Shown piece after piece: positions 3,957-43,247 of a stretch of DNA of 64,000 bases (its first letter is position 1; each line of letters begins with the position of its first letter). The DNA comes from Spirochaetia bacterium (GTDB lineage: Bacteria > Spirochaetota > Spirochaetia > CADAEX01), in the NCBI GenBank assembly GCA_031548835.1, contig JAVBQS010000110.1, positions 110 through 64,109 of the forward strand. Reading direction: 5' to 3'. The notes below the pieces were generated by a model, which was not told where the DNA came from, ran no database searches, and saw only the letters and a list, made by a program, of their open reading frames with translations. A program made the position numbers and the translations under genes.

Positions 3957-4171
3957 TCTTGAAAATATCCAAATATTTTCTATAAACTAACGGATTATTC
4001 TAAACAACAAGATAAAATTTATATTACTACTACACAAAATTATTGAAAATAAAGTTAATAGAAACAACAGAAATATAAAAACCAATATTCCGGAACTCAA
4101 AACAAGAGGATTGATAGTGCAAGCAGGTTCTGACAAGGGTGTTTATTGGAAAATTAAAAAAGGAATTTTAT

Positions 4172-7626: not shown

Positions 7627-7725
7627 TATATACAACATAACAAAAAAATATAATATTGCAGAAAAATAAAAATTCTGGATATCCTAAAGTAACAATCAAA
7701 TCCATCAAAAGATCGACAGGTTTAA

Positions 7726-8808: not shown

Positions 8809-8918
8809 AAGGGAATTCTTATCGTATAATAAAGAGAGTAACCACCATACATATTTATATGGGTTGCGATACCTCTATTTTAAAAAAGGTCTGACTAGAG
8901 ATTTTATTTCTTATCAGT

Positions 8919-11859: not shown

Positions 11860-11864
11860 TTGGT

Positions 11865-13154: not shown

Positions 13155-13951
13155 AATTGTTAAATAAGTCAAAAAAAACAGGATATTTTTTTATTTTTTG
13201 TATAATTTTTTTATTATTAACTATCTCAATTTATGCAGCACCGCAGGATGAATATAAAAATCTTTTAAAAAAAGTAGATGATTTAGTTAATTTTAAAGAG
13301 AATGATCTTTCTGCAGAATATGTAGTAGAAAAAAGAGATCCGGGAGGCGCAATATCAACTACTGTTGCTGCGATGTTCCGGAGAGATAAAACAGATCAGT
13401 TTCTTATTTTAATACTGGAACCTATTGTTGATAAAGGAAAAGGTTATCTTAAAACAGGAGATAATCTTTGGCTTTATGATCCTGTAAGTCATAGCTTTAC
13501 TTTTACAAGCGCAAAAGAGCGGTTTCAAAATTCCGGAGCACGTAATTCTGATTTTAACAGGTCAAATTATTCTGGAGATTATTCTGTTGTTTCTGGGAAA
13601 AAAGAAAAGCTTGGTAAATTTGATTGCACTGTTTTGGATCTCAAAGCTTTAACTAACAAAGTTTCTTTTCCAAAAGTACGCATCTGGGTATCGGAAGATA
13701 ATCTTGTCAGAAAGATAGAAGATTATAGCCTTTCAGATCAGCTTATGAGAACAACAGCAATTCCTACATATCAAAAAGTAGGAGATAGGTGGCTTCCTGC
13801 GACTCTTGTAATACTGGACCATCTTGTTTTTCGTAAAATTGCTGGTAAAATAGAGTATGAAAGAACTACAGTAACAATAAAGAATCCTTCTTTAAAAACA
13901 CTTCCTAATTCTGTTTATACTAAAGAATATCTGGAAAGAGCAAATAGTTAA
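13151..13951 (+). CDS. Secreted LolA-like (outer-membrane lipoprotein-sorting family) protein
   Basis: ATG at 13151 overlaps the upstream stop (ATGA). Signal peptide present. Size and position next to the FtsX permeases resemble LolA-like proteins of MacB-type modules. The fold assignment is from memory only. Confidence 0.45.
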   Translation: MKLLNKSKKTGYFFIFCIIFLLLTISIYAAPQDEYKNLLKKVDDLVNFKENDLSAEYVVEKRDPGGAISTTVAAMFRRDKTDQFLILILEPIVDKGKGYLKTGDNLWLYDPVSHSFTFTSAKERFQNSGARNSDFNRSNYSGDYSVVSGKKEKLGKFDCTVLDLKALTNKVSFPKVRIWVSEDNLVRKIEDYSLSDQLMRTTAIPTYQKVGDRWLPATLVILDHLVFRKIAGKIEYERTTVTIKNPSLKTLPNSVYTKEYLERANS

Positions 13952-13969
13952 ATTATAGTTATAAAATAC

Positions 13970-15301
13970 ATGTATAAAAATATTTTCTTTAATCTTATAA
14001 TATTGATTTTTTTACTTTTTAGCCCTTTCTTAGCTTTTACAGATAATGGAGAAGAAAATACAGATACATCGGAAAAAGATAAACCATTATACAATGATAC
14101 TACTGATGAATCTTCTGAAGAAATTGCTCCTGAAAACCCGAATATTGATAGTATAATCGAGGTAGAAGAAGGTGACGAAGGGCTTCTTTTTGATTTATTT
14201 GATGAACCTACTGAAGATTTTGTTGTTAAAGATACAGATGTTGATCATAGAAAGCAGGTAGAACAAAATGAGCAAATGATTATAAAGCGTTCTTTTTCTG
14301 CACAGGGCGGCGGTTCTATTGGATGGATAGGGTTTCCGCAATTTGATGATTTATCAGATGGTTTTGATGTTGCATTAGGCTCAAGTGCAAAAGCGCTATT
14401 ATCTTTTTCTGCAAAACCAGATCCAATTTTTGGGGTTTCCGGAACTTTTTATACTGAAATTGACTATGATAATGGCAAAACAGATTGGTCTCAACTTGTT
14501 ATTGACCAACTTTATGGCGACTATATACTTCTTGATAAAGCTTTTTTCAGAGTTGGCAAATTTCCTATGAAGTGGGGGCAAGGCCGTATTTTTACGCCTG
14601 GAGATCTAATGGATGAAAGTGAGGATGGCGTTTCTGTTAGAGCTGCTTTTCCAACAGTTATGGATGGCCTTACTCTAGTTACTCTTGCAAATAAATATTA
14701 TCAAAATAACAGGAAAAAACAATTTGGAGAACATGATTTGGTAGCAGGAGGACTTATTGATAAAGTCTTTGGCAATCTTTATCTGTCTTTAGGGACAAGA
14801 TACCAATATTATGCAGGGTGGAATTTTCTAGGTTCATTAAAAATAGTTCTTTTTAAAATTGATTTTTTTACTGATATGGTTTTACTGGAAAATAAAACAG
14901 AAGATGATTATGATTTCGAAACTGTAGCAGGTTTTTTTAGAGAATGGGATAAATTTAAAATTTATGGCGAATATAGCTATGAAAAAGTACATGAAATAAG
15001 TACAAATGAATATGAATATGGCCATAATGTTGGCCTTGCTGCCGGGTATAAAAAAATATTTTCAACTTCTATAGATTTTGCTGTTGAATGGCGGCATACT
15101 TTTTATGATAATTCCGGCAGGGTTATTCCTGCAATATCATTTTATCCCTGGAAATTTGTTAGAATGAATTTTGGAGTCCCTATTCTTTATGGAGATGACA
15201 CATCAAGAAAGATTCTCGATGATGATGATGAATATGATTATATTCAGGAAAATAGAGGAATTTATTTTGTTTTTTCTATTAAACTTTCCTCTTCTTTTTA
15301 A
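13970..15301 (+). CDS. Putative outer-membrane beta-barrel protein with polyacidic N-terminal region
   Basis: Signal peptide. D/E-rich stretch (DESSEEIAPENP...EEGDEGLLFDLFDEPTEDF). Alternating amphipathic pattern. C-terminal '...LSSSF' (terminal Phe, an OMP sorting signal). Confidence 0.4.
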   Translation: MYKNIFFNLIILIFLLFSPFLAFTDNGEENTDTSEKDKPLYNDTTDESSEEIAPENPNIDSIIEVEEGDEGLLFDLFDEPTEDFVVKDTDVDHRKQVEQNEQMIIKRSFSAQGGGSIGWIGFPQFDDLSDGFDVALGSSAKALLSFSAKPDPIFGVSGTFYTEIDYDNGKTDWSQLVIDQLYGDYILLDKAFFRVGKFPMKWGQGRIFTPGDLMDESEDGVSVRAAFPTVMDGLTLVTLANKYYQNNRKKQFGEHDLVAGGLIDKVFGNLYLSLGTRYQYYAGWNFLGSLKIVLFKIDFFTDMVLLENKTEDDYDFETVAGFFREWDKFKIYGEYSYEKVHEISTNEYEYGHNVGLAAGYKKIFSTSIDFAVEWRHTFYDNSGRVIPAISFYPWKFVRMNFGVPILYGDDTSRKILDDDDEYDYIQENRGIYFVFSIKLSSSF

Positions 15302-15306
15302 AAGAA

Positions 15307-16011
15307 TTATTCCGACTGTTTATAATTTTCTGTTACAGAACCATCTTTAAGCCTGATAATGTGATCAGCAATAGAAAAAATATTCTGGTCATGTGTTGAA
15401 AATATAAAAGTAGTATTAAGCTCACTGTTTATCTGTTTCATAAGTTCTATTATTTCTTCGCCTGTTTTGCTGTCAAGATTTGCAGTAGGCTCATCCGCAA
15501 GAACTATTTGTGGTTTTGTTACAAGCGCTCTGGCAATTGCAACACGCTGCCTTTGTCCGCCTGATAACTCATTTGGCTTATGATTTTTCCATTTTGCAAG
15601 GCCAACTGCTGATATTAAGTGATTTATATATTCTGTTCTGCTTGATTTTTCTTCTTTTGTTATCTGCTTTTTTCCTATTAATAATGGAAATTCAATATTT
15701 TCATATACATTAAGAACAGGAAGAAGATTAAATGACTGGAAAATAAAACCTATTGTTGAATGCCTTAGTTCTGTTATTTTTTTATCAGATAATTTTCCTG
15801 TATCAATTCCATCTATTTTTACAATACCTTCTGTAGGCACATCTATGCAGCCAATCAGGTTTAATATGGTGGATTTTCCTGAGCCAGAGGGGCCGATTAT
15901 TGAAATAAAATCACCTTTTTCAATTTCAAAAGTGACTCCTTTGATCGCTACTACCTCTGTTTTTCCTAATGGATAGATTTTTTTAACATTTTCCAGAGTA
16001 ACGATTGCCAT
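15307..16011 (-). CDS. ABC transporter ATP-binding protein (LolD/MacB-type)
   Basis: Walker A 'GPSGSGKST'. Signature 'LSGGQRQRVAIARAL'. Walker B 'VLADEPT'. Convergent with the permease genes. Confidence 0.9.
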   Translation of the reverse strand: MAIVTLENVKKIYPLGKTEVVAIKGVTFEIEKGDFISIIGPSGSGKSTILNLIGCIDVPTEGIVKIDGIDTGKLSDKKITELRHSTIGFIFQSFNLLPVLNVYENIEFPLLIGKKQITKEEKSSRTEYINHLISAVGLAKWKNHKPNELSGGQRQRVAIARALVTKPQIVLADEPTANLDSKTGEEIIELMKQINSELNTTFIFSTHDQNIFSIADHIIRLKDGSVTENYKQSE

Positions 16012-16447: not shown

Positions 16448-17689
16448 ATGAAAAACAAAATTAATCGATCTTTGCTTTTCCTGCTTGCATGGATTATTTT
16501 TGGGGTTATTATTATTACATCTCTAACCAGTTTTTTTGTTTATAATACTTTTTTATTCTGGAATGATATGAAAACCAGAACATTTATAAGTATTTCAATA
16601 ATTATATATTTGCTTTTTTCAATTCTTTCATTAAGAATTAACCGTTTTTCATATAGAGAACAGCTTGGTTTGGTTTTATTTATTCTCTGTGTGTGCATGT
16701 CTGTTTTTCTGACAATAATAGCAATTGGAAGACTTTATTACTCCAGGAGTTATCTTGTTTATTATTATATTTTTTCATTTGTATGGATTGGAATAGGATT
16801 CTATTTTTTCAAAAACCCTAAAAACTCTTTTTTCCTTTTGTGTCCCTGGGGATTATGTCTTGAGCTGGCTAAAAATAGCGGCAGAAATTGGGAAATGCTT
16901 AAAACACCGCAGTTAAAAAAATGCGATGGAATAATTGTAGATTTGCATGAAAAGATAGAACCTGAATGGATGAGAATGATTGCTAATGCAACATTGATAA
17001 ATCTTCCTGTATATCATGCTGCAACTATTTATGAAAAAACAGCAGGAAAAGTTTCTGCACAACATTTAAATGAAGGAATTCTATCAACATACAAGGTAAA
17101 TGCAATCTATTTTAGAATAAAATCTATTCTTGAAAAAATTTTAATTATACTTTTTTCTCCGCTTTTAATAACAGTTGTTATTATGGTTGCAATTATTATT
17201 AAAATAGATTCAAAAGGACCTGTCTTTTTTGTTCAGGAGAGAGTGGGAAGAAAAGGAAAACCATTTAAAATGTATAAATTCAGGTCAATGATAACAGAAT
17301 CAGAAAAAGATGGTGCAAAATTTACATCCACGGATGATAAAAGAATAACAAAAACAGGCAGCATTTTAAGAAAATATAGAATAGATGAAATTCCGCAATT
17401 TCTTAATATATTGAAAGGTGAAATGAGTTTAATAGGGCCCAGGCCTGAACAGGTTGTCTTTTCAAACAGATTTGAAAAAGAGATCCCATTTTATGCTTAC
17501 CGGCATTTGGTTAACCCTGGAATAACTGGCTGGGCACAGGTAAATCATGGTTATGCTGCAGGAACAGAAGAGACAGAAACAAAACTTGAATATGATCTTT
17601 ATTATGTTAAATATATGGGTTTTTGGCTTGATCTTATTATTATATTGAAAACATTAAAAACAATTATGACAGGTTTTGGATCAAAATAA
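16448..17689 (+). CDS. Undecaprenyl-phosphate sugar phosphotransferase (WbaP/WcaJ-type initiating transferase)
   Basis: N-terminal TM block. C-terminal bacterial sugar-transferase domain 'PVFFVQERVGRKGKPFKMYKFRSM...SLIGPRPE...GITGWAQVN'. Confidence 0.85.
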   Translation: MKNKINRSLLFLLAWIIFGVIIITSLTSFFVYNTFLFWNDMKTRTFISISIIIYLLFSILSLRINRFSYREQLGLVLFILCVCMSVFLTIIAIGRLYYSRSYLVYYYIFSFVWIGIGFYFFKNPKNSFFLLCPWGLCLELAKNSGRNWEMLKTPQLKKCDGIIVDLHEKIEPEWMRMIANATLINLPVYHAATIYEKTAGKVSAQHLNEGILSTYKVNAIYFRIKSILEKILIILFSPLLITVVIMVAIIIKIDSKGPVFFVQERVGRKGKPFKMYKFRSMITESEKDGAKFTSTDDKRITKTGSILRKYRIDEIPQFLNILKGEMSLIGPRPEQVVFSNRFEKEIPFYAYRHLVNPGITGWAQVNHGYAAGTEETETKLEYDLYYVKYMGFWLDLIIILKTLKTIMTGFGSK

Positions 17690-17780: not shown

Positions 17781-20405
17781 ATGTTTGCTTTTTTACATTC
17801 ATTGTTTATATGGCCGTTTCAGGTGTTTATAGAAATTTTTTTTATGATTTTTATAAAAATTTTACGAAATAATATAGGACTAATAATAATATTGTTAAGT
17901 GTTGTTCTGAATCTTTTTTTTATTTATTTTTATAAACCTTATAATTTTTTTTGTGTTAGTGAAATAAAAAATCCATTGTTAAAAAATATAGCCAATGGCA
18001 GAAAAATTGGTGAAAAAATTTCAGTAATTTTTTCAATTATAAAACCATATATATTTTTAATTCTTTATTCTTTTCTTTTTATTGCTGCCTATGATTATTT
18101 TATCAATACAACATATCTTGAAAAATCTTCTTTTTTTATTATAAAAGATTTAAATCAGCCGGATCAATTAATAAAAATTGGAACAGTTACTTTAAATCTT
18201 TTTCCTGTTTTAATGCTTATCTTTGCTATTGTTTCTGTATTTATTCCATTTATTTTATATAAAAGAAAAATTATTATTTGCCGTGCAGCAGCTTTTATAA
18301 TTTTGTTTTTACTATTCTTTTTTATTTTATATAACAGTCCTTCCGGGTTAGCTCTGTTTTGGATTGTGACAGGATTATTTTTATTATTTATAAATATTTT
18401 AAGCTCTTTAAAAAGTTCTGGAAAAATATTTAAAGCTCTGATTGTTTTTTCATGCATTCTGTTTTTATTGTTTTTTATAAAACGGTTTAATAATTTTAAA
18501 ATTAAATATATGATTGCGTTAATTGTTATAGATATAACAGTAATGCTGATAGCTTTAAAAAAAGAAGCAATAAAAAAGTTTTTTGAAAACAGCTGTTTTT
18601 TATCCAGGGATAAAGATCTCTGTAGTTTATACAAATATTCATCAATAATTCTTTTTATTCTTACAGGTCTTGCTGTTCCGTTTCTTCTATTAGCATCATC
18701 TCCAACAGAATTTGATAATCCAACAGATATGATTATAAGAACAATTCTTCAGGCAGGATCAATTTTTATTGTATTTTCATTTCTTGTATGGACTTTTTCA
18801 ACATTGCCTATGCGTAGGTTTTTATCTCTTTTTTTATCATTTATAGCAGTTCTTGCTTTTTTCTGTTGTTTTATTTTTATGGGAAAATATGGCGCTATGG
18901 CTCCTGGTTTTGTTTTTGATAGCTGGGAACAGTTTGATAGATCTAAAGATTTAATAAAAAGCATATTGGCAGTTGTATTATCTTTTTTGACAATATTTAT
19001 CATTTTCCGTATTAATAAGTTGCGCTGGCTAAAAGACGGATTTATAATATTGTGCTTGTCTTTAGTTGTAATGTCAGGAGTTAATTTATTTACAATTATT
19101 AAAGAATATACTCTTTTGAATTCCCGCTCAGACAGGCTTGCAGATAAAGATTCTTCGAATGAAAAAAGATATAATATTTTTAATTTTTCAAAAACAGGAA
19201 AAAACATTTTTATTTTATTTCTTGATAAAGCTCCTGGCCATACTTTCTCTTATGCTTTGGATTTAAAACCTTCTTTAAAAAAAGATTTTGATGGTTTTGT
19301 CTGGTATCCTAATACAATATCTTTTGGCCCTAATACATTGTTTGGACTTCCCGCAATGATTGGTGGATATGAGTACACGCCTCTCCAGATAAATGAACGT
19401 AAAAATATATCTCTTAAAGATAAAGTAAATGAATCACTCAAAGTGCTGCCTGCTATTTTTGGAGAAGCAGGATATAATGTTGTTGTTACAGACCCTTCAT
19501 ATTCTAATTTGTCGTGGATACCTGACACAAGTATTTATGATAGCATGGAAAATGTAAAAGCGTATAACATTACAGGAATTTTCAGAAACAGGTTTAACAA
19601 AGAAAATACAGAAAGAAACAAAGGATTTTCCAAAATCTTTGATCATGATATTATGATGAGATTTTCAATATTCAGAATTCTGCCGCCCTTTTTAAGGCCA
19701 TTATTATATTACGATGGAAACTGGTTAAAACTGGTTGGATCTTCAAGCTATAACCAATCTATAAAACATTATCCAAACCTTCTTTACCTTGAGGATTTGT
19801 GTAGTATTAATGATGCCGGAAATAATTTTAATATTATGATGAATGAAGCAACGCACAACCCTGGCCCGTATGATAAAAATTTTGAGCTCACTGCGAAGCC
19901 TGTTGAATATTCTGATGATGATATAAAAAAATTCGGCTCCAGCGGTAATGTAAAATATATTTATGCATATACAGCAGCTCTTTCTGCTATTTCCGGATGG
20001 TTTGAATGGCTGAAAAAAGAAGAAATATATGATAATACAAAAATTATTATAGTAAGCGATCACGGATGGTCTTTTAATGAAAAAATTCTTGATTCCTGGG
20101 TTCAGGAAAATTATAACCCGCTATTATTAGTAAAAGATTTTAATTCCAGGGGCTCTATAGTAAGGTCTGATCAATTTATGACAAACGCAGATGTTCCGGC
20201 AATAGCAGTTAAATCTTTGGATAATCCAATTAATCCATATACAGGGGAAACTATTGACAGTTCTCCTAAAGATGAAGAAATTTTTGTTGCTAGCGGACAT
20301 TGGGCTGTTAAAAGCCAAAAAGAAGATTCTCTTGTTATCGGAACAATTTTTGAAGTAAAAAATAAAAATATATTTGATTCTGAAAATTGGGTAAGTATAA
20401 AGTAA
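17781..20405 (+). CDS. Large polytopic membrane protein with C-terminal alkaline-phosphatase-superfamily phosphotransferase domain (paralog 1)
   Basis: About 470 aa with more than 10 TM segments, then 'NFSKTGKNIFILFLDKAPGHT', 'YPNTISFGPNTLFGLPAM', 'MNEATHNP', 'IIIVSDHGW' and 'FMTNADVPAIA'. Homologous to 28637..30898 and 32521..34758. Confidence 0.6.
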   Translation: MFAFLHSLFIWPFQVFIEIFFMIFIKILRNNIGLIIILLSVVLNLFFIYFYKPYNFFCVSEIKNPLLKNIANGRKIGEKISVIFSIIKPYIFLILYSFLFIAAYDYFINTTYLEKSSFFIIKDLNQPDQLIKIGTVTLNLFPVLMLIFAIVSVFIPFILYKRKIIICRAAAFIILFLLFFFILYNSPSGLALFWIVTGLFLLFINILSSLKSSGKIFKALIVFSCILFLLFFIKRFNNFKIKYMIALIVIDITVMLIALKKEAIKKFFENSCFLSRDKDLCSLYKYSSIILFILTGLAVPFLLLASSPTEFDNPTDMIIRTILQAGSIFIVFSFLVWTFSTLPMRRFLSLFLSFIAVLAFFCCFIFMGKYGAMAPGFVFDSWEQFDRSKDLIKSILAVVLSFLTIFIIFRINKLRWLKDGFIILCLSLVVMSGVNLFTIIKEYTLLNSRSDRLADKDSSNEKRYNIFNFSKTGKNIFILFLDKAPGHTFSYALDLKPSLKKDFDGFVWYPNTISFGPNTLFGLPAMIGGYEYTPLQINERKNISLKDKVNESLKVLPAIFGEAGYNVVVTDPSYSNLSWIPDTSIYDSMENVKAYNITGIFRNRFNKENTERNKGFSKIFDHDIMMRFSIFRILPPFLRPLLYYDGNWLKLVGSSSYNQSIKHYPNLLYLEDLCSINDAGNNFNIMMNEATHNPGPYDKNFELTAKPVEYSDDDIKKFGSSGNVKYIYAYTAALSAISGWFEWLKKEEIYDNTKIIIVSDHGWSFNEKILDSWVQENYNPLLLVKDFNSRGSIVRSDQFMTNADVPAIAVKSLDNPINPYTGETIDSSPKDEEIFVASGHWAVKSQKEDSLVIGTIFEVKNKNIFDSENWVSIK

Positions 20406-21760: not shown

Positions 21761-23068
21761 ATGAAAATAGCAATTATTGGCACAGGTTATGTTGGACTGG
21801 TTTCCGGCGCTTGTTTTGCAGAATTCGGATGGGATGTAACCTGTATTGATAAAAATAGTGAAAGAATCAATTCTCTTGAAAAAGGCATAATACCTATATA
21901 TGAACCAGGGCTTGAAGATCTTGTTAAAAAAAATGTAAAAGAAAGCCGTCTCAATTTTTCTCTTGAATATTCCCCATATGTTGAAGATGCAGATATTGTT
22001 TTTATTGCAGTAGGGACTCCTTCAAGGCGCGGAGATGGTTATGCAGATCTTACCTATGTTTATGAAGCAGCCAAAGAAATAGCTTCACATTTAAAAGGCT
22101 ATACTGTAATTGTTGATAAAAGCACTGTCCCTGTGGGTACAGCCAGGAATGTTGCAAAAATAATAAGAGCTGAAAATCCAGCAGCAGAATTTGATGTTAC
22201 ATCAAACCCTGAATTTTTGCGGGAAGGATCAGCTATCGGCGATTTTATGCGCCCGGACAGGGTTGTTCTTGGCGTTGAAAGTGAGAAAGCAGAGGAGATG
22301 CTTAGAGAGCTTTACAGGCCTCTTTATTTAATTGAAACACCAATGGTAATAACAGGGCTTGAAACAGCAGAGCTTATTAAATATGCTTCCAATGCTTTTC
22401 TCGCTGCTAAAATTTCTTTTATAAATGAGATAGCAAACCTTTGTGAAAAAGTAGGCGCTGATGTTAAAGATGTTTCAAAAGGAATGGGGCTTGATAAAAG
22501 AATAGGCCCTAAATTTCTTCATGCCGGGCCCGGTTATGGAGGTTCATGTTTTCCAAAAGATGTCAGCGCGCTTGTCAAAATTTTCCATGATAATGGAATG
22601 ACTGCCAGAATTCTTGAATCAGTTATTAATGTAAATAATTCCCAGAAATCTCTTATGGTTAACAAAATTCGCGAAGCGCTTGGCGGCAGCGAATATAAAA
22701 AGACAATTGCTTTTCTTGGACTTACCTTTAAACCTGAAACTGATGATATGAGAGAAGCTCCTTCTCTTACAATTATTCCTGCTCTTCTGAACGGCAATGC
22801 TGTTATTAAGGCGACAGATCCTGAAGGAATAGAGGAAGCAAAAAAACTGCTTCCTTCTGAAATCAATTATTATAATGATCTTTATGAAACATGCAAAAAT
22901 GCTGATGCAGTTGTTATTCTTACTGAGTGGAATCAATACAGGGCAGTTGATTTTGAAAAGTTAAAGAAAATAATGAAAGACAATATATTTATTGATCTTA
23001 GAAATATATATAATAAGGATATAGTTGAGAAAGCAGGGTTTAAATATATTTCTGTCGGCCGAAAGTGA
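21761..23068 (+). CDS. ugd: UDP-glucose 6-dehydrogenase
   Basis: 'MKIAIIGTGYVGLVSGACFAEFG' Rossmann N-terminus. Catalytic Cys context 'GGSCFPKD'. Length 435 aa. Confidence 0.9.
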   Translation: MKIAIIGTGYVGLVSGACFAEFGWDVTCIDKNSERINSLEKGIIPIYEPGLEDLVKKNVKESRLNFSLEYSPYVEDADIVFIAVGTPSRRGDGYADLTYVYEAAKEIASHLKGYTVIVDKSTVPVGTARNVAKIIRAENPAAEFDVTSNPEFLREGSAIGDFMRPDRVVLGVESEKAEEMLRELYRPLYLIETPMVITGLETAELIKYASNAFLAAKISFINEIANLCEKVGADVKDVSKGMGLDKRIGPKFLHAGPGYGGSCFPKDVSALVKIFHDNGMTARILESVINVNNSQKSLMVNKIREALGGSEYKKTIAFLGLTFKPETDDMREAPSLTIIPALLNGNAVIKATDPEGIEEAKKLLPSEINYYNDLYETCKNADAVVILTEWNQYRAVDFEKLKKIMKDNIFIDLRNIYNKDIVEKAGFKYISVGRK

Positions 23069-23077
23069 GGAATTAGT

Positions 23078-23542
23078 TTGAATTATAACAGATGTGCTGT
23101 AAATGGCGTTTTTGATCTTTTTCATGTCGGGCATGTGAGGCTTTTAAAAAGAGCAAAAGAGATGTTTAAAGAAGTAGTTGTTACTGTAGATTCTGATGAA
23201 CTTACAACAAAAGAGAAAAGAAAACCTATTTTTAACCAGGATGAACGGATTGAAATATTAAAAGCGTGCCGCTATGTTGCTGATGCAGTTATTGTTGACA
23301 GATCCTGGGGCCCGCATGCATTTGATCCTGAAAAAGTAGATGAATTTATGAATCAATATAATATAGATGCAGTTTTTGTTGCTGCTGATGATGATGAATA
23401 TGTAAAATACTGGTTTGGCTATCTTTACAGCCAGGGAAAAGTTATCATTGTTCCAAGAACAAAAGATGTATCAACTACACATGTTATTAAGGTTGTTAAC
23501 GGAGAAATTGTTAAAGAACTTGAGGGAAATTGTAAGGAGTGA
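23078..23542 (+). CDS. Glycerol-3-phosphate cytidylyltransferase-like (TagD family) cytidylyltransferase
   Basis: 'GVFDLFHVGHVRLLKRAKE' (HxGH). 'RYVADAVIV'. C-terminal 'PRTKDVSTTHVIK' parallels TagD 'RTEGISTT'. TTG start after a GAGGAA SD. The substrate (glycerol-3-P versus another alcohol phosphate) is not resolved. Confidence 0.75.
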   Translation: MNYNRCAVNGVFDLFHVGHVRLLKRAKEMFKEVVVTVDSDELTTKEKRKPIFNQDERIEILKACRYVADAVIVDRSWGPHAFDPEKVDEFMNQYNIDAVFVAADDDEYVKYWFGYLYSQGKVIIVPRTKDVSTTHVIKVVNGEIVKELEGNCKE

Positions 23543-23545
23543 TAA

Positions 23546-24487
23546 TTGAAAAAAATAGTTGTTACAGGCGGGGCAGGATTTATTGGTTCTCATTTATGTG
23601 AAAGGCTTTTAAAAGAAGGTAACGATGTTATATGTCTGGATAATTTTTTTACAGGCACTAAAAAAAACATAAGCCATCTTATTGGAAATCCTTTTTTTGA
23701 ATTAATGCGGCATGATGTAACTTTTCCTCTATATGTGGAAGTTGACCAGATATATAACCTGGCTTGCCCTGCAAGTCCTGTCCATTATCAATTTGATCCT
23801 GTGCAGACAACAAAAACATCGGTTCATGGAGCAATCAATATGCTTGGTCTTGCAAAAAGAACAAAAGCAAGAATATTGCAGGCTTCAACTTCTGAGGTAT
23901 ATGGAGATCCTGAAGTTCATCCTCAGAGGGAAGATTACTGGGGGCGGGTTAATCCAATTGGAATTAGAAGCTGTTATGATGAAGGAAAAAGATGTGCAGA
24001 AACTCTTTTTTTTGATTATTACAGGCAGCATAATGTTGATATAAAAGTTATCAGAATATTTAATACTTATGGGCCAAATATGCATCCTAATGATGGGCGG
24101 GTTGTAAGTAATTTTATTGTACAAGCTCTTAAAGGTAACGATATTACAATTTACGGAGATGGTAATCAGACAAGGTCTTTTTGTTATGTTGATGATCTTG
24201 TTGAAGGTTTAATTAAAATGATGAAAACAGAAAAAGATTTTACCGGACCTGTAAATCTTGGCAATCCAGGAGAGTTTACAATGAATCAGCTTGCAGAAAT
24301 TGTTATAAAATTGACAGGATCAAAATCAAAAATAAAATATTTTCCATTGCCGCAAGATGATCCGAGGCAGAGAAAACCAGATATTGCAAAAGCTCAGCAG
24401 TATTTGAACTGGAAACCGCTTGTTGAGCTAGAGGAAGGACTTGAAAAAACAATTCAATATTTTAAGAAAACTATTAATACAAAATGA
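23546..24487 (+). CDS. UDP-glucuronate decarboxylase (UDP-xylose synthase)
   Basis: Near-textbook UXS sequence: '[17 protein letters not shown]', '[27 protein letters not shown]', '[11 protein letters not shown]', '[11 protein letters not shown]'. TTG start after a GGAG SD. Confidence 0.9.
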
Positions 24488-25953
24488 GTAATTTTAGCAG
24501 TCAAAGTTTTTTTAATCTTGTTTTTGTTTATGCTGGTGTTTTTTTAGGGTTTATTAATACTATTTTAAAAACAAAAGTTTTTTCTACAGAAGAAATAGGA
24601 GTTGTTACTATAACAACAACACTTTCCATTTTTTTGGTATTTTTAATTTCTTATGGTTTTTTGTCAGGGACAAGACGGTTTTACAGCAGGTTTAAAGATA
24701 ATGTTGCTGAGAAAACAGGTTTTATTATAATAAATTTATTGGTTTCTCTTATCTTATACTGTTTTGCAAGTGTAATATTTTTTCTTTTAAAATCTTTTAT
24801 TCTGGAAAAATATAACAATCTATTGTTTGAAAGATATTTTAACGCTGTTTTTTTGTTTTTTATTGGCAATCTTTTAACAAGTTTTTTTCAATATATTTTT
24901 GAGAGTGAATACAGATCACTCCTGGGAAATATATACTATGATATAATTCATCGTATTCTTCATTTTTTAGTATTAATTTATATGCTTAATACTAATAGCA
25001 GTTTTTATTGGTATATATTCTTTCTTGTAATTTCTCTTTTTCTTAATATTTTATTTTATCTTGCAATGGGATTTAAGCTTATAAAGCTTGGGAAACCATC
25101 TTTCGCTATAATAACACGCAGTTTTATCATAGAATATTTAAAATACTGTTCTCTAACTTTTTCTTCTGGAATGACAGGTCTGGTAACTGAAAATATAGAC
25201 AAAGTTATGATTGGGGCATATCTTTCAATGTCAGATCTTGGAATATATTCTATTGTTGTTCAAATTGCTATGCTTATAAAAATAATGAAAAATGGATTTA
25301 TAAGAATAGCTTATCCTTCTATTGCTGAAGCATGGGAGAAAAAGGATAGTAAGAAAATTCAAAATATCTATAAGGAAAATTCTGCTATACAAATATTTTT
25401 GGGATCTTTCATTTTTGTTTTTATTTTTCCAAAACAAATAATGTCTGTACTTAGCCCTGAATATATTAAGGGCAGTAATATTCTTATTGTAATATCATTT
25501 GCTTATCTTTTAGATCTTTCAACAGGAATGAGTGAGGGTATAATATCATTGTCCAGATATTATTATTTTGATCTCTTTTTAAGAATACTTCTTGTGCTGC
25601 TTACAATAATTACAAATATAATAATGATTCCTTTTTGGGGTTTACTTGGAGCTGCTGCCGCAACTACTTTGACAATATTGATTTATAATATATTAAAATT
25701 AATGTTTATAAAAATAAAATTTTCAATGAACCCTTTTTCTTTTGATACAATAAAAATAATATTTTTAATTTTATTTATAGGATTTTGTTTCTTTTTTCTT
25801 TTAAAAAAAATCAATATAGAGTTAAATATTTTTAATATAATATTTTTATTTATAATTGTTTTTATTTTATATGTTATAATTGGAAAAAATATTATAAAGA
25901 TAAGTTTTTTGAACAAAATTAAAATATGTAATAAAATTAAGAGAAAAAAATAA
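24484..25953 (+). CDS. wzx: Wzx-like polysaccharide flippase (MOP superfamily)
   Basis: 489 aa with about 12-14 TM helices. Position in the cluster fits a flippase. ATGA overlap with the upstream gene. Confidence 0.65.
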
Positions 25954-25962
25954 AAATTATAT

Positions 25963-26512
25963 AGTAACCTTCCCCATGGTCTGCATGGAATTGCCCAAGA
26001 TGGTAATCCAATAAAAGATACAAATAATATTAGCTCCTCTGCAACAGCATATTATTCAGCAAAGAAATTCACAGATGTAATGGGGAACTGGATAAAATGG
26101 ATGAAAAATAATAATGTTTATGACAATACTATGATAATTATTGTATCTGATCATGGAAATACTTTAAACGATAATGATATTAAGCTACCAGAACAACTAG
26201 ATGATGTAAAAAATCTTAGAAATATATCCAGTGTACAATCTCTTTTGCTTGTAAAAAGGTTTGGGAGCAGCGGGGGAGTAAAAATTGGTCATGCAAGAGT
26301 AAGTCCTACTGATGCACCTGTAATATTATAAGCAGAAACAGGAATTGATTTCCCGTTTGAATACGATTTATATTCTAGTAATAAACGTATTTATAGTGAT
26401 AATAAGGGTCATTTTCTAAAAGTAGATACCATAAAGTACAATTCATACAAAGTAAATGGTACAATATTTGATCCTGATTCATGGGGTATTTATGATAATA
26501 AAAAACAATAGG
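25963..26512 (+). pseudogene. 5'-truncated, disrupted remnant of an alkaline-phosphatase-superfamily membrane transferase paralog (C-terminal ~180 codons)
   Basis: The translation 'HGLHGIAQDG...AYYSAKKFTDVMGNWIKWMKNNNVYDNTMIIIVSDHGNT...LLVKRFGSSGG...' aligns with the C-termini of 28637..30898 and 32521..34758. It begins 10 bp after the wzx stop with no N-terminal part. There is a stop at 26331 and then a frame change to '...DPDSWGIYDNKKQ*'. Confidence 0.75.
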
Positions 26513-26557
26513 GTGTTGAATTTTAAGTATAAAAAATTATAAATTATATTGATACTT

Positions 26558-26596
26558 TATTTGCCATGTGTAAGCTACGCTTACACATGGCAAATA
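26558..26596. repeat. Perfect 39-bp palindrome (18-bp arms, 3-nt centre)
   Basis: TTATTTGCCATGTGTAAGC-TAC-GCTTACACATGGCAAATA lies about 80 bp upstream of the TagB/F-like gene start. No T-run follows on either strand. Confidence 0.7.
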
Positions 26597-26674
26597 GGGG
26601 AGGCAAGCAAAAAGTAAAGACCTGGTTGCGAAGCATATCAGGGTAATATCTTTTATAAACCCCGTGGAGGAATA

Positions 26675-27943
26675 ATGAAACTGTATTTAACTTTAATATT
26701 TTTTGCTGTAACTGTATCACCTGCTTTTTGTTATATAGATCCAGGAACAGGCAGCATGCTTCTTTATGCTATTATTGGCATAGGCGCTGCATTGCTCTAT
26801 GCGTTTAAAGGATATTTTTACAAGCTTAGAGGCAAAATTACAGGCAAGGGATATAATCTTGATTCAGATTTATCTGAATTTGATTTTGTATTTTATTCTG
26901 AAAGTAAAATATATTGGAATGTATTTAGCCCTGTGCTTGAAAACCTTGATAAATCAGGTAAAAAATGTATCTATTTGACCTCAAGCGAGGATGATCCGGG
27001 GTTGGCCTATAAATCAGACAATATTAAATCAAAATATATTGGAGAAGGAGTAAGGGCTGCATCATATCTTAACAATATAAAAGCAGATATTGTAACAATG
27101 ACAACACCGCAGCTTGACGTGCTTACTCTTAAAAAATCAAAAAAAGTTAATCATTATTCCTATATTTTTCATGCTCCAACAGATATTGGAATCTATGGTA
27201 AATATGCATTTGATAATTTTGATTCAATGTTCTGCGTAGGAAAACATCAGATAACTCATATCAAAGAATTTGAAGAAAAAAGAAAAACAAATAAGAAAAA
27301 GCTGTTTGAAACAGGCTGCACATACTATGATGTTTTATTAAAGAAAGAACAGCGGGCAGAAAAGAATGAAAAACCTGTAATTCTGGTTGCTCCTACATGG
27401 AATAAAAACAGCCTTCTTGCAAGATTTGGCTTTAATATTTTAAAACCTCTTTTAACAGGAAAATATAAAGTTATATTAAGGCCACATCCCCAAATGTATA
27501 TTTCCCAGAAAAAACTTATTGAAGAGATAAAAAAAGAAAGCAGCAGTTATCCAGATCTTGTCTGGGATGAAAAGCCATCAGGCGAGGATTCAATGAATGA
27601 ATCAGATATATTGATATCAGATTTGTCCGGAATAATTTTTGACTATTCATTTGTTTTTAAAAAACCTGTAATTTCAATTGATGCTCCTGTTATTGAAACA
27701 GGCCTCGAGCTTGAAGATATGAAAAAAGATGAATTATGGGAACTTAATATTAGAAGCAAACTTGGAAAACTTGTTAAAGAGCAGGATATTTCTAATCTTC
27801 CTGTATATGTTGATGAAATGCTTTTATCATTCAGCAAGGAAAATATTGAAAATATAATAAAAGAAAATATTTACAACTTCGGCAATGCAGGGCCTGTTGC
27901 TGCTAGGCAGTTGGCTGAACTAAAGGAAAATTTGAAAAAATAA
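26675..27943 (+). CDS. TagB/TagF-like CDP-glycerol glycerophosphotransferase family protein
   Basis: N-terminal membrane anchor. 'ILVAPTWNKNS' (TagF 'PTWR'-like) and 'VILRPHPQMY' (catalytic His region). C-terminal 'DILISDLSGIIFDYSFVFKKPVI'. Confidence 0.6.
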   Translation: MKLYLTLIFFAVTVSPAFCYIDPGTGSMLLYAIIGIGAALLYAFKGYFYKLRGKITGKGYNLDSDLSEFDFVFYSESKIYWNVFSPVLENLDKSGKKCIYLTSSEDDPGLAYKSDNIKSKYIGEGVRAASYLNNIKADIVTMTTPQLDVLTLKKSKKVNHYSYIFHAPTDIGIYGKYAFDNFDSMFCVGKHQITHIKEFEEKRKTNKKKLFETGCTYYDVLLKKEQRAEKNEKPVILVAPTWNKNSLLARFGFNILKPLLTGKYKVILRPHPQMYISQKKLIEEIKKESSSYPDLVWDEKPSGEDSMNESDILISDLSGIIFDYSFVFKKPVISIDAPVIETGLELEDMKKDELWELNIRSKLGKLVKEQDISNLPVYVDEMLLSFSKENIENIIKENIYNFGNAGPVAARQLAELKENLKK

Positions 27944-34809: not shown

Positions 34810-36228
34810 ATGGAAAATTTAAATTTTAACAATATTCATGTGATTGTTATAGGCGATATAATGCTTGATATTTATTACTATGGAAAAGTAAGCAGGCTCT
34901 CTCCCGAAGCTCCTGTTCCTATTGTAAAAGTTGATCATACTACTTATACCCCAGGCGGCGCTGCAAATGTTGCTGTAAATATTTCAGATGCCGGGGCATC
35001 TCCATTCTTGTTGGGATATGCAGGTAACGATGATAACAGGAAAAAACTTGAAAAACTGGCAAATGATAAAAAAATAAATTTTAATTTTATATCAGTAAAA
35101 AATCCTACAATAACAAAAGCAAGAATTATAGGCGAACGCCAACAGATTGTAAGAATGGATTTTGAAGATGCAATGGAAAATAACAGAGAAGCTGAAAATC
35201 TGTTAAAAAAAGCATTCCAGGAACAGGTGGAAAAAAAATGTGATGCAGTTATCTTATCTGACTATGGAAAAGGAATTTGTTCTGAAGAGTTTTGCCAATT
35301 TGTAATAAAAATATGCAATGAAAAAGACATTCCTACAGTAGTTGATCCTAAAGGAACAAGCTGGGAAAAATATTCAGGCAGCTATATTGTCACTCCAAAT
35401 TTTTCCGAGTTCAAGGCAATGGTTGGTAAAGAAATATCCAACAGTGATGAAGATATGGAAAAGCATGTGGCTGGTATTGCAAAAAAATATAATCTGCAAA
35501 AACTGCTTGTGACAAGATCAGAAAAAGGAATGAGCTGTTTTGACGGAAAATCAATAATCCACATGCCTACAAAGGCAAAAGAAGTATTTGATGTATCAGG
35601 CGCAGGCGATACTGTTGTAGCTATTTTATCTGTATGCCTTGGCGCAAAATTTAATCTTGAAGAATCGCTCCTGGTTGCAAATAAAGCAGCAGGCATTGTT
35701 GTGGGAAAACTGGGAACAGCATCTGCTACTGTTGAAGAAATTGAAAAATCTTTTGATGATGATGAAAGGAAAAAAGTTATAAATATAAATGATCTTGAAA
35801 ATGTTGTTAGCAGCTTGCGAAGAAGAGGGAAAAAAATAGTTTTTACCAACGGGTGTTTTGATATTGTACATGCAGGCCATGTAAAAGTTTTAAAAGAAGC
35901 AAAATCCTTCGGCGATATTCTTATTCTTGGGCTTAACAGCGATTCATCAATTAAAAAGCTTAAGGGAGAATCCAGGCCTATAAACAATCTTGCAGACAGG
36001 CTTATAGTTTTAACAAATTTTTCTTTCATAGATTATGTTGTTGTTTTTGATACAGACACACCTCTTGAAATAATTAAAAAAATAAAACCAGATGTTCTTG
36101 TAAAAGGCGGGGATTATTCTGTTGAAACAGTTGTGGGCCATGAATATGCAAAAGAGGTAAAGCTTGTAAAATTTCTCGAAGGATATTCAAGCACAAATAT
36201 AATAAAGAAAATACAGGGGAGACAATAA
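34810..36228 (+). CDS. hldE: Bifunctional D-beta-D-heptose 7-phosphate kinase / D-beta-D-heptose 1-phosphate adenylyltransferase
   Basis: Domain I 'IHVIVIGDIMLDIYYYGKVSRLSPEAPVPIV' (ribokinase-like). Domain II 'IVFTNGCFDIVHAGHVKVLKEAK' (cytidylyltransferase fold). Confidence 0.9.
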   Translation: MENLNFNNIHVIVIGDIMLDIYYYGKVSRLSPEAPVPIVKVDHTTYTPGGAANVAVNISDAGASPFLLGYAGNDDNRKKLEKLANDKKINFNFISVKNPTITKARIIGERQQIVRMDFEDAMENNREAENLLKKAFQEQVEKKCDAVILSDYGKGICSEEFCQFVIKICNEKDIPTVVDPKGTSWEKYSGSYIVTPNFSEFKAMVGKEISNSDEDMEKHVAGIAKKYNLQKLLVTRSEKGMSCFDGKSIIHMPTKAKEVFDVSGAGDTVVAILSVCLGAKFNLEESLLVANKAAGIVVGKLGTASATVEEIEKSFDDDERKKVININDLENVVSSLRRRGKKIVFTNGCFDIVHAGHVKVLKEAKSFGDILILGLNSDSSIKKLKGESRPINNLADRLIVLTNFSFIDYVVVFDTDTPLEIIKKIKPDVLVKGGDYSVETVVGHEYAKEVKLVKFLEGYSSTNIIKKIQGRQ

Positions 36229-37172
36229 TGATAATAGTAACAGGCGGGGCTGGCTTTATAGGCAGCAATATTGTTAAAGGATTAAACAATAAAGGCATTG
36301 AAGATATAATTGTTGTAGATGATTTAAAAAATAGCGAAAAACATCTTAATCTTAACAGTTTGAAATTTAAAGATTTTCTGCCTAAAGATGAGTTTCTGGC
36401 CAAGCTGGACTCTATCGATAATATCTCTCTTATTTCACATCAGGGAGCATGCTCAGACACAATGGAAACTGACGGCGCTTTTATGATGGATAACAATTAT
36501 GATTTTAGCAAACAGCTTTATAATTTTTGCAGCAGAAAAAAAATTAAATTTATTTATGCTTCTTCTGCTTCTGTATATGGCAATGGCGACAAAGGATTTA
36601 AAGAAGATGTAAGCAATGAATATCCGCTAAATATATATGCCTATTCCAAATTTTTGTTTGATCAGTATGTAAGAAACAATGCTAAATTATCCAAAAACCA
36701 AGTGGTAGGCCTTAGGTATTTTAATGTTTATGGGCCGCAGGAAAATCATAAAGGAAAAATGGCATCTGTGTTTTTCCATTTCTATAACCAGGCTAAGGAA
36801 ACAGGTGTTATAAAAGTATTTGAGGGAAGTAAAAATTTTCTGAGAGATTTTGTTTTTGTTGATGATATAGTAAATATCAATCTTCATTTTCATGAAAATA
36901 ATATTTCAGGAATATTTAACTGCGGTACAGGCGACTGCAAAAGTTTTTATGATGTTGCAACAGCCGTAAAAGAACAGTTTTCGGGAAAAGAGGTAAAAAT
37001 AGAAGAAATACCTTTCCCTGAAAAATTAAAAGGAAAATATCAGGCTTATACAAAAGCAGATCTTGAAAATTTAAGAAAGAATGGAAAATATGATAAAGAG
37101 ATGACCGATATTTCTAAAGGCGCATCTAATTATCTCAAAATACTTGATAAAAATTCAGGATATTATAAATAA
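36228..37172 (+). CDS. hldD: ADP-L-glycero-D-manno-heptose 6-epimerase
   Basis: '[42 protein letters not shown]' closely parallels the E. coli RfaD N-terminus. ATG overlaps the hldE stop. Confidence 0.9.
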   Translation: MIIVTGGAGFIGSNIVKGLNNKGIEDIIVVDDLKNSEKHLNLNSLKFKDFLPKDEFLAKLDSIDNISLISHQGACSDTMETDGAFMMDNNYDFSKQLYNFCSRKKIKFIYASSASVYGNGDKGFKEDVSNEYPLNIYAYSKFLFDQYVRNNAKLSKNQVVGLRYFNVYGPQENHKGKMASVFFHFYNQAKETGVIKVFEGSKNFLRDFVFVDDIVNINLHFHENNISGIFNCGTGDCKSFYDVATAVKEQFSGKEVKIEEIPFPEKLKGKYQAYTKADLENLRKNGKYDKEMTDISKGASNYLKILDKNSGYYK

Positions 37173-37176
37173 TATT

Positions 37177-37719
37177 ATGAATAAAAAAAATGGATGGTCG
37201 CTGTTTCTTGACAGAGATGGTGTTATAAATGAAAGAATGCCAGATGCATATATAAAAGATTTTAAAGATTTTAAATTCAAAAAAGACTTTCTTGATATCT
37301 TTCCTAAAATTGCTCCTTTCTTTGATTATATTTTTATTGTTACAAATCAGCAGGGCATAGGCAAAGGGCTCATGACAACTAGCGATCTTGAAGCAATACA
37401 TAAAAAAATGGTTAAAAAGCTGAATAAACTTGCTGGAAAAATTGATAAGATTTATTTTTGCCCCCATCTTAAAGATGATAACTGCCAATGCAGAAAACCG
37501 AATCCTGAAATGGCATATATGGCAAAAAAAGATTATCCTGATGTTGATTTTAAAAAATCTCTATTAATAGGGGATAGTGAGAGCGACATAGAATTTGGAA
37601 AAAATACAGGAATGAAAACAATTCTTATAAATAATGGTAATAGCAAAACAACTTCTGCAGATTATTCTGCTGCTGATTTTTATAAAATAGAAAAAATAAT
37701 AGAAAGGCTGTTAAAATGA
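37177..37719 (+). CDS. gmhB: D-glycero-D-manno-heptose 1,7-bisphosphate phosphatase (HAD superfamily)
   Basis: 'LFLDRDGVIN' (HAD motif I), 'VTNQQGIGKG', and the Zn-binding 'CPHLKDDNCQCRKPNP'. Start taken at MNKKNGW (37177) rather than the in-ORF 37144, which would overlap hldD. Confidence 0.8.
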   Translation: MNKKNGWSLFLDRDGVINERMPDAYIKDFKDFKFKKDFLDIFPKIAPFFDYIFIVTNQQGIGKGLMTTSDLEAIHKKMVKKLNKLAGKIDKIYFCPHLKDDNCQCRKPNPEMAYMAKKDYPDVDFKKSLLIGDSESDIEFGKNTGMKTILINNGNSKTTSADYSAADFYKIEKIIERLLK

Positions 37720-38684: not shown

Positions 38685-38741
38685 TAATACTATTTGCTTT
38701 TTAGTTTTAAGCAATCTTCTGAAAATAATAATTAAAAATTT

Positions 38742-39839: not shown

Positions 39840-39866
39840 AACCTTGTAAAAGGAATATAATAATAC

Positions 39867-42084: not shown

Positions 42085-42140
42085 AGATATTTATGGAAAT
42101 AATTTATATTGTAATAAACAAAATTATTTAATAATAAAAT

Positions 42141-43169: not shown

Positions 43170-43247
43170 ATATTTAACAATAATAACTGGTATTGTTTCA
43201 TAATACTTTTTATAATTAGAACTGTAAACAGGTATGATAGCTTTTGA

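Follow-up and report, generated by a model that had tools for sequence, protein, structure and literature searches.

The window analyzed here is a stretch of 64,000 nucleotides from a Spirochaetia bacterium (assembly GCA_031548835.1, contig JAVBQS010000110.1, positions 110 to 64,109 of the forward strand). Its G+C content is ~30%, and between positions ~90 and ~45000 nearly all of its genes lie on the + strand and are devoted to glycan assembly. Within this region are a gene for a small stand-alone cytidylyltransferase (CTase) and a gene for a membrane-anchored protein with the TagF fold (the TagF-like protein), which an initial annotation had read as parts of one operon that makes CDP-glycerol and transfers glycerol-phosphate onto a glycan. 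Overlooked in that annotation were two kinds of partner encoded beside them, a YidC-like membrane protein and polytopic membrane transferases of the alkaline phosphatase (AP) superfamily. The features of the locus are collected in Table 1.

Table 1. Genes and sequence features at the locus (window coordinates; UXS, UDP-xylose synthase; GT, glycosyltransferase; ORF, open reading frame).
Feature	Position	Strand	Family or evidence
CTase (stand-alone cytidylyltransferase, TagD/CCT/ECT superfamily), 154 aa	23078-23542	+	PF01467
TagF-like protein: membrane-anchored TagF-fold phosphotransferase, 422 aa	26675-27943	+	PF04464
YidC-like membrane protein, 229 aa	27943-28632	+	PF02096, TIGR03592
Polytopic membrane protein with C-terminal AP-superfamily domain (Thr-nucleophile, LtaS/EptA type), 766 aa	28598-30898	+	PF00884
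Second AP-superfamily membrane transferase paralogue, 745 aa	32521-34758	+	PF00884, 38.5 bits
Third AP paralogue, 874 aa: degenerate YidC-like N-terminus fused to AP-superfamily domain	17781-20405	+	PF00884, 32 bits
Pseudogene remnant of a further AP-domain paralogue	25957-26331	+	tblastn match 25957-26157; 83-aa ORF 26080-26331 with VSDHGN motif
Perfect 15-bp inverted repeat, 5-nt loop	26560-26594	+	Read from the sequence; upstream of the TagF-like gene
UDP-glucose 6-dehydrogenase (Ugd)	21761-23068	+	Three UDPG_MGDP_dh domains; synteny with CTase in L001, L003, L007, L089, L095
UXS (UDP-glucuronate decarboxylase)	23546-24487	+	Human UXS1 2b69/4gll, E 1.5e-128
Wzx-like polysaccharide flippase	24484-25953	+	PF01943, 45.7 bits
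Putative glycosyltransferase, 335 aa	30922-31929	+	Sub-threshold RXYLT1_C PF24785, 21.9 bits (cutoff 27); faint GT47
ADP-heptose pathway block: HldE, HldD-like, GmhB-like, GmhA-like, two GT9, one GT4	34810-43817	+	
HldE	34810-36228		
GmhA-like SIS	43248-43817		
Bac_transf initiating transferase	16448-17689		

The initial annotation had described a membrane-anchored TagF-like protein with PTW and RPHP motifs, and this description holds. The protein matches PF04464 with 54.2 bits (cutoff 22.1; E 1.5e-14), and its APTW (residues 239-242) and RPHP (269-272) motifs are invariant across 30 homologues; the invariant residues A239, P240, W242, P270, H271 and P272 align with the ‘MHP’ of TarL and the ‘GHH’ of Cps3D. 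In the AlphaFold2 (AF2) model (pLDDT 87.4), two hydrophobic N-terminal helices (residues 2-13 and 26-56) are followed by a two-domain Rossmann-type body. The hairpin formed by these helices carries the conserved motif Y-x-D-P-G-x-G-S, and a positively charged cluster, KLRGKITGK, follows helix 2, as would fit a cytoplasmic catalytic domain. A Foldseek search ranked TagF 3l7k (E 1.9e-12), TagF 3l7l and Cps3D 8qoy as the first three matches, with E values of 2e-12 to 3e-11 and TM-scores of only ~0.5. A PDB search with the single sequence returned nothing useful and a family profile was required, with which Cps3D (8qoy; E 2e-7) was the best sequence match and TarL followed at E 1.3e-5; the N-terminal domain yielded no alignment to PDB sequences. 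The invariant H166 and the near-invariant H191 are at most candidates, from sequence, for the base equivalent to TagF His444. The protein consists of the catalytic domain and the hairpin, with no fused glycosyltransferase.

Directly 3’ of the TagF-like gene, and overlapping its stop by 1 nt, lies the gene for the YidC-like protein, which scores above cutoff against both PF02096 (87.9 bits; cutoff 35) and TIGR03592 (95.5 bits; cutoff 84.3) and is 49.8% identical to the N-terminus of a Neptunomonas protein in which YidC and AP domains are fused. Judged by this comparison, the window gene is the split-off N-terminal domain of a YidC+AP fusion found elsewhere, and the split is not a sequencing frameshift, since it recurs in three related loci (L001-L003). 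A profile built from 31 partner sequences aligned with YidC structures over its first ~220 residues (3wo7, YidC2, E 1e-13), and its C-terminal domain gave weak matches to the AP superfamily (sulfatases, LtaS at 2e-4 and MCR-1 at 3e-4). The hydrophilic groove of the Bacillus halodurans YidC2 contains an arginine, which we take to be Arg72; the column aligned to it holds asparagine, serine or threonine in 28/28 family members (N43 in the window protein). Because the groove arginine is replaced in this way, a housekeeping role is unlikely for the family, and the YidC-like domain is probably not a housekeeping insertase.

The three AP paralogues score 30-38 bits against PF00884 (cutoff 25), with 30.2 bits for the 766-residue protein. 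Residues D362, T399, H578, D641 and H642 (766-residue numbering) are invariant in 31 AP-domain homologues; the 745- and 874-residue paralogues belong to this same alignment, and the 745-residue protein shares its invariant catalytic columns. The 874-residue protein scores 24.9 bits against PF02096, below the cutoff of 35. No Cys/Ser-x-Pro-x-Arg (CxPxR) motif is present in the AP domains of the family alignment, and this, together with the invariant D/T/H/D-H set, points to the Thr-nucleophile (LtaS/EptA) class and away from the true sulfatases. By analogy with that class, they would use a phospholipid head group as donor. AP domains of the LtaS/EptA type, present in several paralogous copies that recall primase/synthase pairs, might also be taken to indicate a lipoteichoic-acid-like polymer, for which the TagF-like protein would prime a glycolipid and the AP proteins, acting as LtaS-type polymerases, would make poly(glycerol-phosphate) from phosphatidylglycerol. 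We consider this very improbable, as the similarity to LtaS in the PDB is weak (E 2e-4), the locus lies inside a cluster of Wzx, GT and heptose genes, and the same module occurs in 2-aminoethylphosphonate (AEP) contexts, where it cannot polymerize a head group that has no free hydroxyl.

The association of these proteins extends far beyond the spirochaetes. Full-length homologues of the TagF-like protein with 40-50% identity occur in Gammaproteobacteria, Campylobacterales, Bacteroidales and other groups; an exhaustive profile search retrieved 968 family representatives (E <= 1e-30), and the family comprises ~970 protein clusters at 50% identity. A metagenome scan with the family alignment gave 80 loci, which were annotated by local BLAST. 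A same-strand YidC/AP gene directly adjoins the TagF-like gene in 70 of 86 loci in all, and in 56 of the 61 whose flanks reach 700 bp or more on each side; many loci contain one TagF-like gene with 1-3 YidC/AP paralogues. Neptunomonas and Bacteroidales have a five-gene operon that encodes a PF01467 CTase fused to phosphoenolpyruvate (PEP) mutase, a Ppd-type thiamine pyrophosphate enzyme, an iron-type alcohol dehydrogenase (Fe-ADH), the TagF-like protein and a YidC(60KD_IMP)+Sulfatase fusion of 815-1013 residues. The first three genes correspond to the Fom1/PhpC-type route to cytidylyl-2-hydroxyethylphosphonate (PMC6697681, PMC8942020). Neither a glycosyltransferase nor a flippase is encoded near these five-gene operons, and the two transferase-type proteins must therefore cooperate on a pre-existing acceptor.

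The donor supply varies. Flanks of 5 kb or more on each side are available for 23 loci, of which nine have PEP mutase/Ppd, five have a small stand-alone CTase, and nine have neither within reach. Homologues of the TagF-like protein at 41-47% identity reside mostly in phosphonate operons, so membership in PF04464 does not imply CDP-glycerol. The small CTases of the family adjoin class-V aminotransferases (AEP-transaminase type) or a binding-protein ATP-binding cassette (ABC) importer. In three gut-metagenome loci (L022:3835-7983, L018:3895-7984 and L058:503-1838), a small CTase is followed by the importer, with SBP_bac_6, ABC_tran and BPD_transp_1 components, and then by the TagF-like and YidC+AP genes, an arrangement that suggests that the head-group precursor is scavenged there. 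In a neighbor-joining tree of TagF-like proteins, the partners of the spirochaete CTase clade are scattered over four positions among phosphonate-linked members, and the window protein lies nearest to the hydroxyethylphosphonate-type operons; the tree lacks support values, its deep branches are long, and it can give only a weak hint. Ten long family members contained only PF04464 or a GT4 domain. P0297 (784 aa) is a TagF-like protein with a C-terminal GT4 glycosyltransferase, and P0280/P0303 (~1025 aa) carry a 630-residue membrane-rich extension of no detectable family; by eye the P0280 extension resembles an AP domain (‘GDHG’), but it matched neither the family HMM nor the PDB and was rejected as one.

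The reading that we tentatively favor, at somewhat short of an even chance, is that the CTase, the TagF-like protein, the YidC-like protein and the AP domains form a four-part envelope-decoration system that works by a lipid relay. The CTase, whose family membership is observed, would make a CDP-alcohol by condensation of a small phospho-alcohol with CTP. The TagF-fold enzyme, held at the cytoplasmic face by its N-terminal hairpin, would then hand the phospho-alcohol of the CDP donor on to a hydroxyl group, releasing CMP. The acceptor of this transfer may be a membrane lipid and not the final glycan. To our knowledge, all characterized membrane AP-superfamily transferases (LtaS, EptA, OpgB, GacH) draw their head groups from lipids; because of this, and because the minimal operons encode no transferase-type protein other than the TagF-like and YidC+AP ones, the TagF-like enzyme probably makes a lipid-linked head group. 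The YidC-like protein, lacking the groove arginine, would translocate or present this lipid-linked head group, and the periplasmic Thr-nucleophile AP domains would shift it onto the heptose-containing surface glycan, the three paralogues plausibly serving three acceptor sites. The TagF-like/YidC/AP core of other phyla is supplied by PEP mutase pathways (CMP-2-hydroxyethylphosphonate, CMP-HEP; CMP-AEP), for which the stand-alone TagD/CCT-like CTase would be the replacement in this spirochaete clade. The broader proposal, that the TagF-like, YidC-like and LtaS/EptA-like proteins constitute an undescribed and widespread pathway, in which a CMP-activated phospho- or phosphono-alcohol is loaded on a membrane lipid by the cytoplasmic enzyme, moved by a YidC fold and transferred in the periplasm to glycans, with the spirochaete version having swapped its supply, is in our view possible but doubtful.

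Of the two proteins on which the initial annotation was built, the CTase is a small HxGH cytidylyltransferase, as had been stated, and the family matches of both proteins lie far outside what chance would give. It matches PF01467 with 76.9 bits (cutoff 21; E 2.2e-21) and contains HVGH at residues 16-19 and RTKDVSTT at residues 127-134. The latter motif had been called TagD-like; it is present, but motifs of the HxGH and RTxGISTT type are common to glycerol-3-phosphate (GCT), phosphocholine (CCT) and phosphoethanolamine (ECT) cytidylyltransferases and are not specific to GCT. The nearest relatives outside its own clade are gammaproteobacterial proteins of 38-42% identity, four of which (P0078, P0080, P0083 and P0087) pass the GCT equivalog model TIGR01518 with 173-179 bits; like TagD and TarD, these relatives have T-Y-G before FD and (M/I)GDDW. 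A profile of the spirochaete clade scored highest against TagD in the PDB (71 bits), followed by CCT (64.5), TarD (64) and the ECT N-terminal domain (44).

The kinship with GCT equivalogs is among the evidence for a classical alternative, in which a TagD-type enzyme makes CDP-glycerol and the TagB/F-like protein adds glycerol-phosphate directly to an undecaprenyl-PP-linked repeat on the cytoplasmic side before Wzx flipping, while the YidC-like and AP proteins are separate periplasmic modifiers, such as phosphoethanolamine or phosphoglycerol transferases acting on bulk phospholipids. Membership of the two enzymes in PF01467 and PF04464, the TagF fold and the presence of Bac_transf and Wzx-like genes in the same cluster all agree with it, and Gram-negative bacteria are known whose TagF-like enzymes make glycerol-phosphate glycans (PMC5974469, PMC7901785). 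It would leave unexplained, however, why TagF-like and YidC/AP genes of different phyla adjoin almost without exception (56/61 loci) and why the minimal five-gene operons lack a glycan-assembly gene, and the CTase fails the GCT equivalog cutoff. We consider this alternative unlikely.

A number of observations weigh against the four-part relay or against glycerol as its head group. Classical TagB and TagF enzymes act directly on lipid-linked glycans, a precedent that runs counter to the proposed relay, for which we argue from conserved gene linkage and from likeness to LtaS, EptA, OpgB and GacH. No Rosetta-stone fusion of a TagF-like protein to a YidC or AP domain was confirmed among the family members examined. 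Against TIGR01518 the window CTase reaches 76 bits, 90 bits short of the cutoff of 165.4, and by this measure it is not a TagD equivalog; in the alignment, it and its spirochaete clade have V-N-G and AADD(D/E)EY in place of TYG and GDDW. The first Foldseek match of its AF2 model (pLDDT 90.2) is rat CCT (3hl4, E 4e-11, TMq 0.73), behind which stand TarD/TagD (E 2-3e-9; TagD 1coz at 3e-9) and ECT (E 6e-9). A CTase located beside an AEP-transaminase-like gene scores 113 bits against TIGR01518, above the window enzyme, so partial similarity to this model is not diagnostic of the substrate, and the score was rejected as a substrate indicator. Fold and profile comparison was likewise rejected as a means of discriminating TagD from CCT/ECT, as the scores do not separate them. 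The genes that accompany the module within the spirochaete clade differ by locus: a PfkB kinase in L087 and L088, a LicA/LicC-like pair in L093 and L094, and a zinc-type alcohol dehydrogenase (Zn-ADH) in L095. They therefore give no consistent hint of the substrate, and the window and L089 have none of them. Finally, UXS, the Wzx-like gene and a 0.72-kb gap separate the CTase gene from the TagF-like gene, and within the gap are the AP-gene (sulfatase-type) remnant and a perfect hairpin, TTTGCCATGTGTAAG-CTACG-CTTACACATGGCAAA, the latter between the remnant and the TagF-like start codon. Of the ‘same operon’ in the initial annotation, only the common strand could be upheld; with the hairpin and the 0.7-kb gap intervening, co-transcription of the two genes is at most plausible. 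No T tract follows the hairpin, nor was it called by the terminator scan; the promoter/terminator scan as a whole was rejected, having performed no better than on shuffled sequence.

The residues that would line the substrate pocket were compared with those of CCT, in which the amine and phosphate subsite is formed by D82 and H168 of the rat enzyme (D623 and H709 of PfCCT) plus an aromatic box (PMC6060094). In the window CTase the aspartate position is occupied by N9 and the histidine position by A103, Y108 aligns with CCT Y173, and W77, W112 and F113 are aromatic, with the loops of this alignment uncertain; the CCT tyrosine and aromatic positions are thus kept, and the aspartate and histidine are changed. 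A pocket of CCT/ECT type would have refuted the initial annotation, and this mixed pattern neither refutes nor confirms it. N9, Y108, W112 and F113 are invariant among the spirochaete-clade CTases, which also share a conserved 8-residue insert, SWGPHAFD. These features bear on an alternative with the same four-part architecture and a different head group, which would be either an amino-alcohol phosphate (activated as CDP-ethanolamine or CDP-choline) or a phosphonate (as CMP-AEP or CMP-HEP) that is taken up from the gut or synthesized by genes outside the window. In its favor are the clade-invariant Y108 and the W112/F113 pair, the rank of CCT as first match by fold, the phosphonate supply of most homologous modules, the choline-kinase-like and LicC-like genes beside the module in L093 and L094, the pairing of a small CTase with an ABC importer in some gut loci, and the report that Treponema denticola is a phosphonate maker (PMC6697681). 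Working against it are Asn9 and Ala103 at the CCT/ECT aspartate and CCT His168 positions, profile scores per domain that slightly favor TagD, Fom1-type CT domains that gave no tblastn match to the window CTase at E 1e-3, and the 64-kb window, in which no kinase, importer or PEP mutase was found. On balance we regard this alternative as quite unlikely.

For the CTase itself, sequence comparison makes sn-glycerol-3-phosphate the most likely substrate, with close to an even chance. It is favored because the enzyme's closest relatives outside its clade are GCT equivalogs, the best per-domain profile score against the PDB goes to TagD, the sister TagF-like proteins use a hydroxy-alkyl donor, and glycerol-3-phosphate needs no precursor-supply gene, of which the window has none. 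An amino-alcohol phosphate or scavenged phosphonate is a distinctly less probable substrate, and another polyol-phosphate is improbable. UXS and the RXYLT1_C-like protein encoded nearby hint, by analogy, at xylosylation of a polyol-phosphate, as in the ribitol-phosphate-xylose of dystroglycan; the L003 orthologue of the latter protein (L003:16888-17871) is likewise sub-threshold for RXYLT1_C (23 bits, cutoff 27) and faintly similar to GT47. Of the CDP-glycerol pathway in the initial annotation, the enzyme families stand, and transfer of a CDP-activated phospho-alcohol onto a glycan would be sensible chemistry for the locus; its assignment to glycerol is made less secure by the CTase score below the GCT cutoff and by the phosphonate linkage of most TagF-like homologues.

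In the spirochaete clade, whose CTases are 63-90% identical, the CTase always occurs with TagF-like, YidC-like and AP genes and often next to Ugd and UXS. The closest relatives of the window are metagenome-assembled genomes of Spirochaetaceae/Spirochaetia, with TagF-like identities of 86% (L001), 82% (L002) and 66% (L003). Two relatives bear “Lab288” isolate names, from which alone we infer termite-gut samples. In L003, a complete chromosome, two tandem CTases (3529-4008 and 4099-4545; 58% and 81% identical to the window enzyme) precede a fused 973-residue YidC+AP gene. The choline-kinase-like and LicC-like genes of L093 lie at 7133-8911, the PfkB gene of L087 at 14404-15393 and the Zn-ADH gene of L095 at 10672-11784. 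PfkB was rejected as a general module member, as it is confined to L087 and L088 and absent from the window and the other loci.

The module can be placed against several known systems. With TagD/TarD and TagB/TagF of Bacillus and Staphylococcus it shares the HxGH/RTxGISTT cytidylyltransferase fold, the GT-B fold of TagF with APT(W/F) and a conserved C-domain histidine, and an expected chemistry in which a CDP donor gives up its phospho-alcohol and CMP is released. The window CTase differs from TagD/TarD in falling below the GCT cutoff with altered signature residues, and the TagF-like protein differs from TagB/TagF in its transmembrane hairpin with the invariant YxDPGxGS, its linkage to YidC-like and AP genes and the location of its family mostly in phosphonate operons. 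A TagF-like domain in a diderm is also found in the Gram-negative capsule polymerases Cps3D, Cps1B and CslB (PMC5974469, PMC8262930), but these are large polymerases of several domains, fused glycosyltransferase domains included, and are encoded in ABC-transporter (group 2) capsule loci, whereas the window enzyme is single-domain, membrane-anchored and part of a Wzx-type cluster; no Kps-type gene was found among the scanned ORFs of the window. The TagF-like proteins are thus a subfamily set apart from TagB/F and the capsule polymerases by the transmembrane hairpin, the fixed YidC/AP partners and the association with phosphonates.

Like the AP partners, LtaS, GacH, OpgB and EptA/MCR-1 have a polytopic anchor and carry at its outer face an AP-superfamily domain, in which the nucleophile is Thr and the metal ligands are D/H. 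They differ in their five-helix anchor and in their use of bulk phospholipid donors, whereas the anchor of the window family starts with a YidC/Oxa1-like domain, a dedicated CDP/CMP-dependent enzyme is linked to it, and its similarity to PDB entries is at E 1e-4 or worse. The YidC-like domain is related to YidC/Oxa1 insertases by its above-cutoff PF02096 and TIGR03592 matches and by its profile match to B. halodurans YidC2, and departs from them in the replacement of the groove arginine throughout the family and in being fused to, or encoded beside, a transferase domain. Phosphonyl tailoring, in which cytidylyl activation also precedes transfer (CMP-HEP by the Fom1 CyTase, CMP-AEP by PntC; PMC6697681, PMC8942020), provides a further parallel, as PF01467-PEP mutase fusions, Ppd and Fe-ADH or AEP transaminase supply the homologous modules of other loci. 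The window departs from it in that tblastn with two PEP mutase/Ppd/Fe-ADH sets and Pfam scans detected none of these three in the 64 kb, that the same kinds of search found no choline/ethanolamine kinase, importer, transaminase or glycerol-metabolism gene there, and that its CTase lineage is distinct from Fom1-type domains.

The initial annotation had seen novelty in a Gram-positive-style chemistry within a diderm envelope. This claim is superseded, as diderms with teichoic-acid-like chemistry have been described before (PMC5974469, PMC8262930, PMC7901785) and the window would add one more example. The window's own chemistry is probably ordinary, and the conserved triad is the part worth attention: a large TagF-like subfamily tied to YidC-like and LtaS/EptA-like partners and phosphonate-fed in Bacteroidales, Gammaproteobacteria and many gut and environmental metagenomes. 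Within the incomplete coverage of our search, no literature was found that links PF04464, glycerophosphotransferase, YidC or sulfatase to phosphonate tailoring; an earlier description is possible, and the TagF-like/YidC/AP triad appears to be undescribed. The steps that attach phosphonates to cell surfaces are essentially unknown (PMC6697681), and the module offers concrete candidate enzymes for this attachment. If the proposal is correct, an undescribed pathway would fill in the transfer steps that bacterial phosphonate tailoring still lacks, and the YidC fold would have been recruited for handling small molecules or lipids. For the spirochaete, the module leads one to expect a glycolipid that contains heptose and bears a phosphodiester-linked decoration, unlike the lipooligosaccharide of T. 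denticola, which is reported to be heptose-free (PMC3776326).

Several other genes of the window surround the module. The initial annotation had placed the locus in a heptose-containing lipooligosaccharide cluster, and its heptose part is borne out by HldE, HldD-like, GmhB-like and GmhA-like SIS genes with two GT9 genes; Pfam scans of the ORFs found no gene for lipid A or 3-deoxy-D-manno-octulosonic acid (Kdo) in the 64-kb window, so for its heptose glycan an ‘inner core’ is only inferred. The glycan region also encodes GT2, GT4 and GT25 glycosyltransferases, a methyltransferase and an FtsX/MacB-LolA-like block. Ugd and UXS flank the CTase gene, and their synteny with it is kept in relatives. 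The FtsX/MacB/LolA-like block (10408-16011) contains FtsX, FtsX+MacB_PCD, a LolA-like (TP_0789-like) protein, a 443-residue protein without assigned family and a divergent ABC ATPase; it is kept upstream of the Bac_transf gene in a relative (L089/L090:811-6262) and may be an exporter for a glycan or glycolipid. At the distal end of the glycan cluster, a CotH-kinase-family protein (PF08757, 108 bits) is encoded at 43841-44974, adjoining the GmhA-like SIS gene. Farther along, on the - strand, a 915-residue protein (50248-52995) with an Fe-only-hydrogenase large-subunit-like domain, Fe-S motifs, Hpt and HATPase_c adjoins a CheX phosphatase (53029-53481, -), and appears to be a chemotaxis-associated sensory kinase of hydrogenase-like type.

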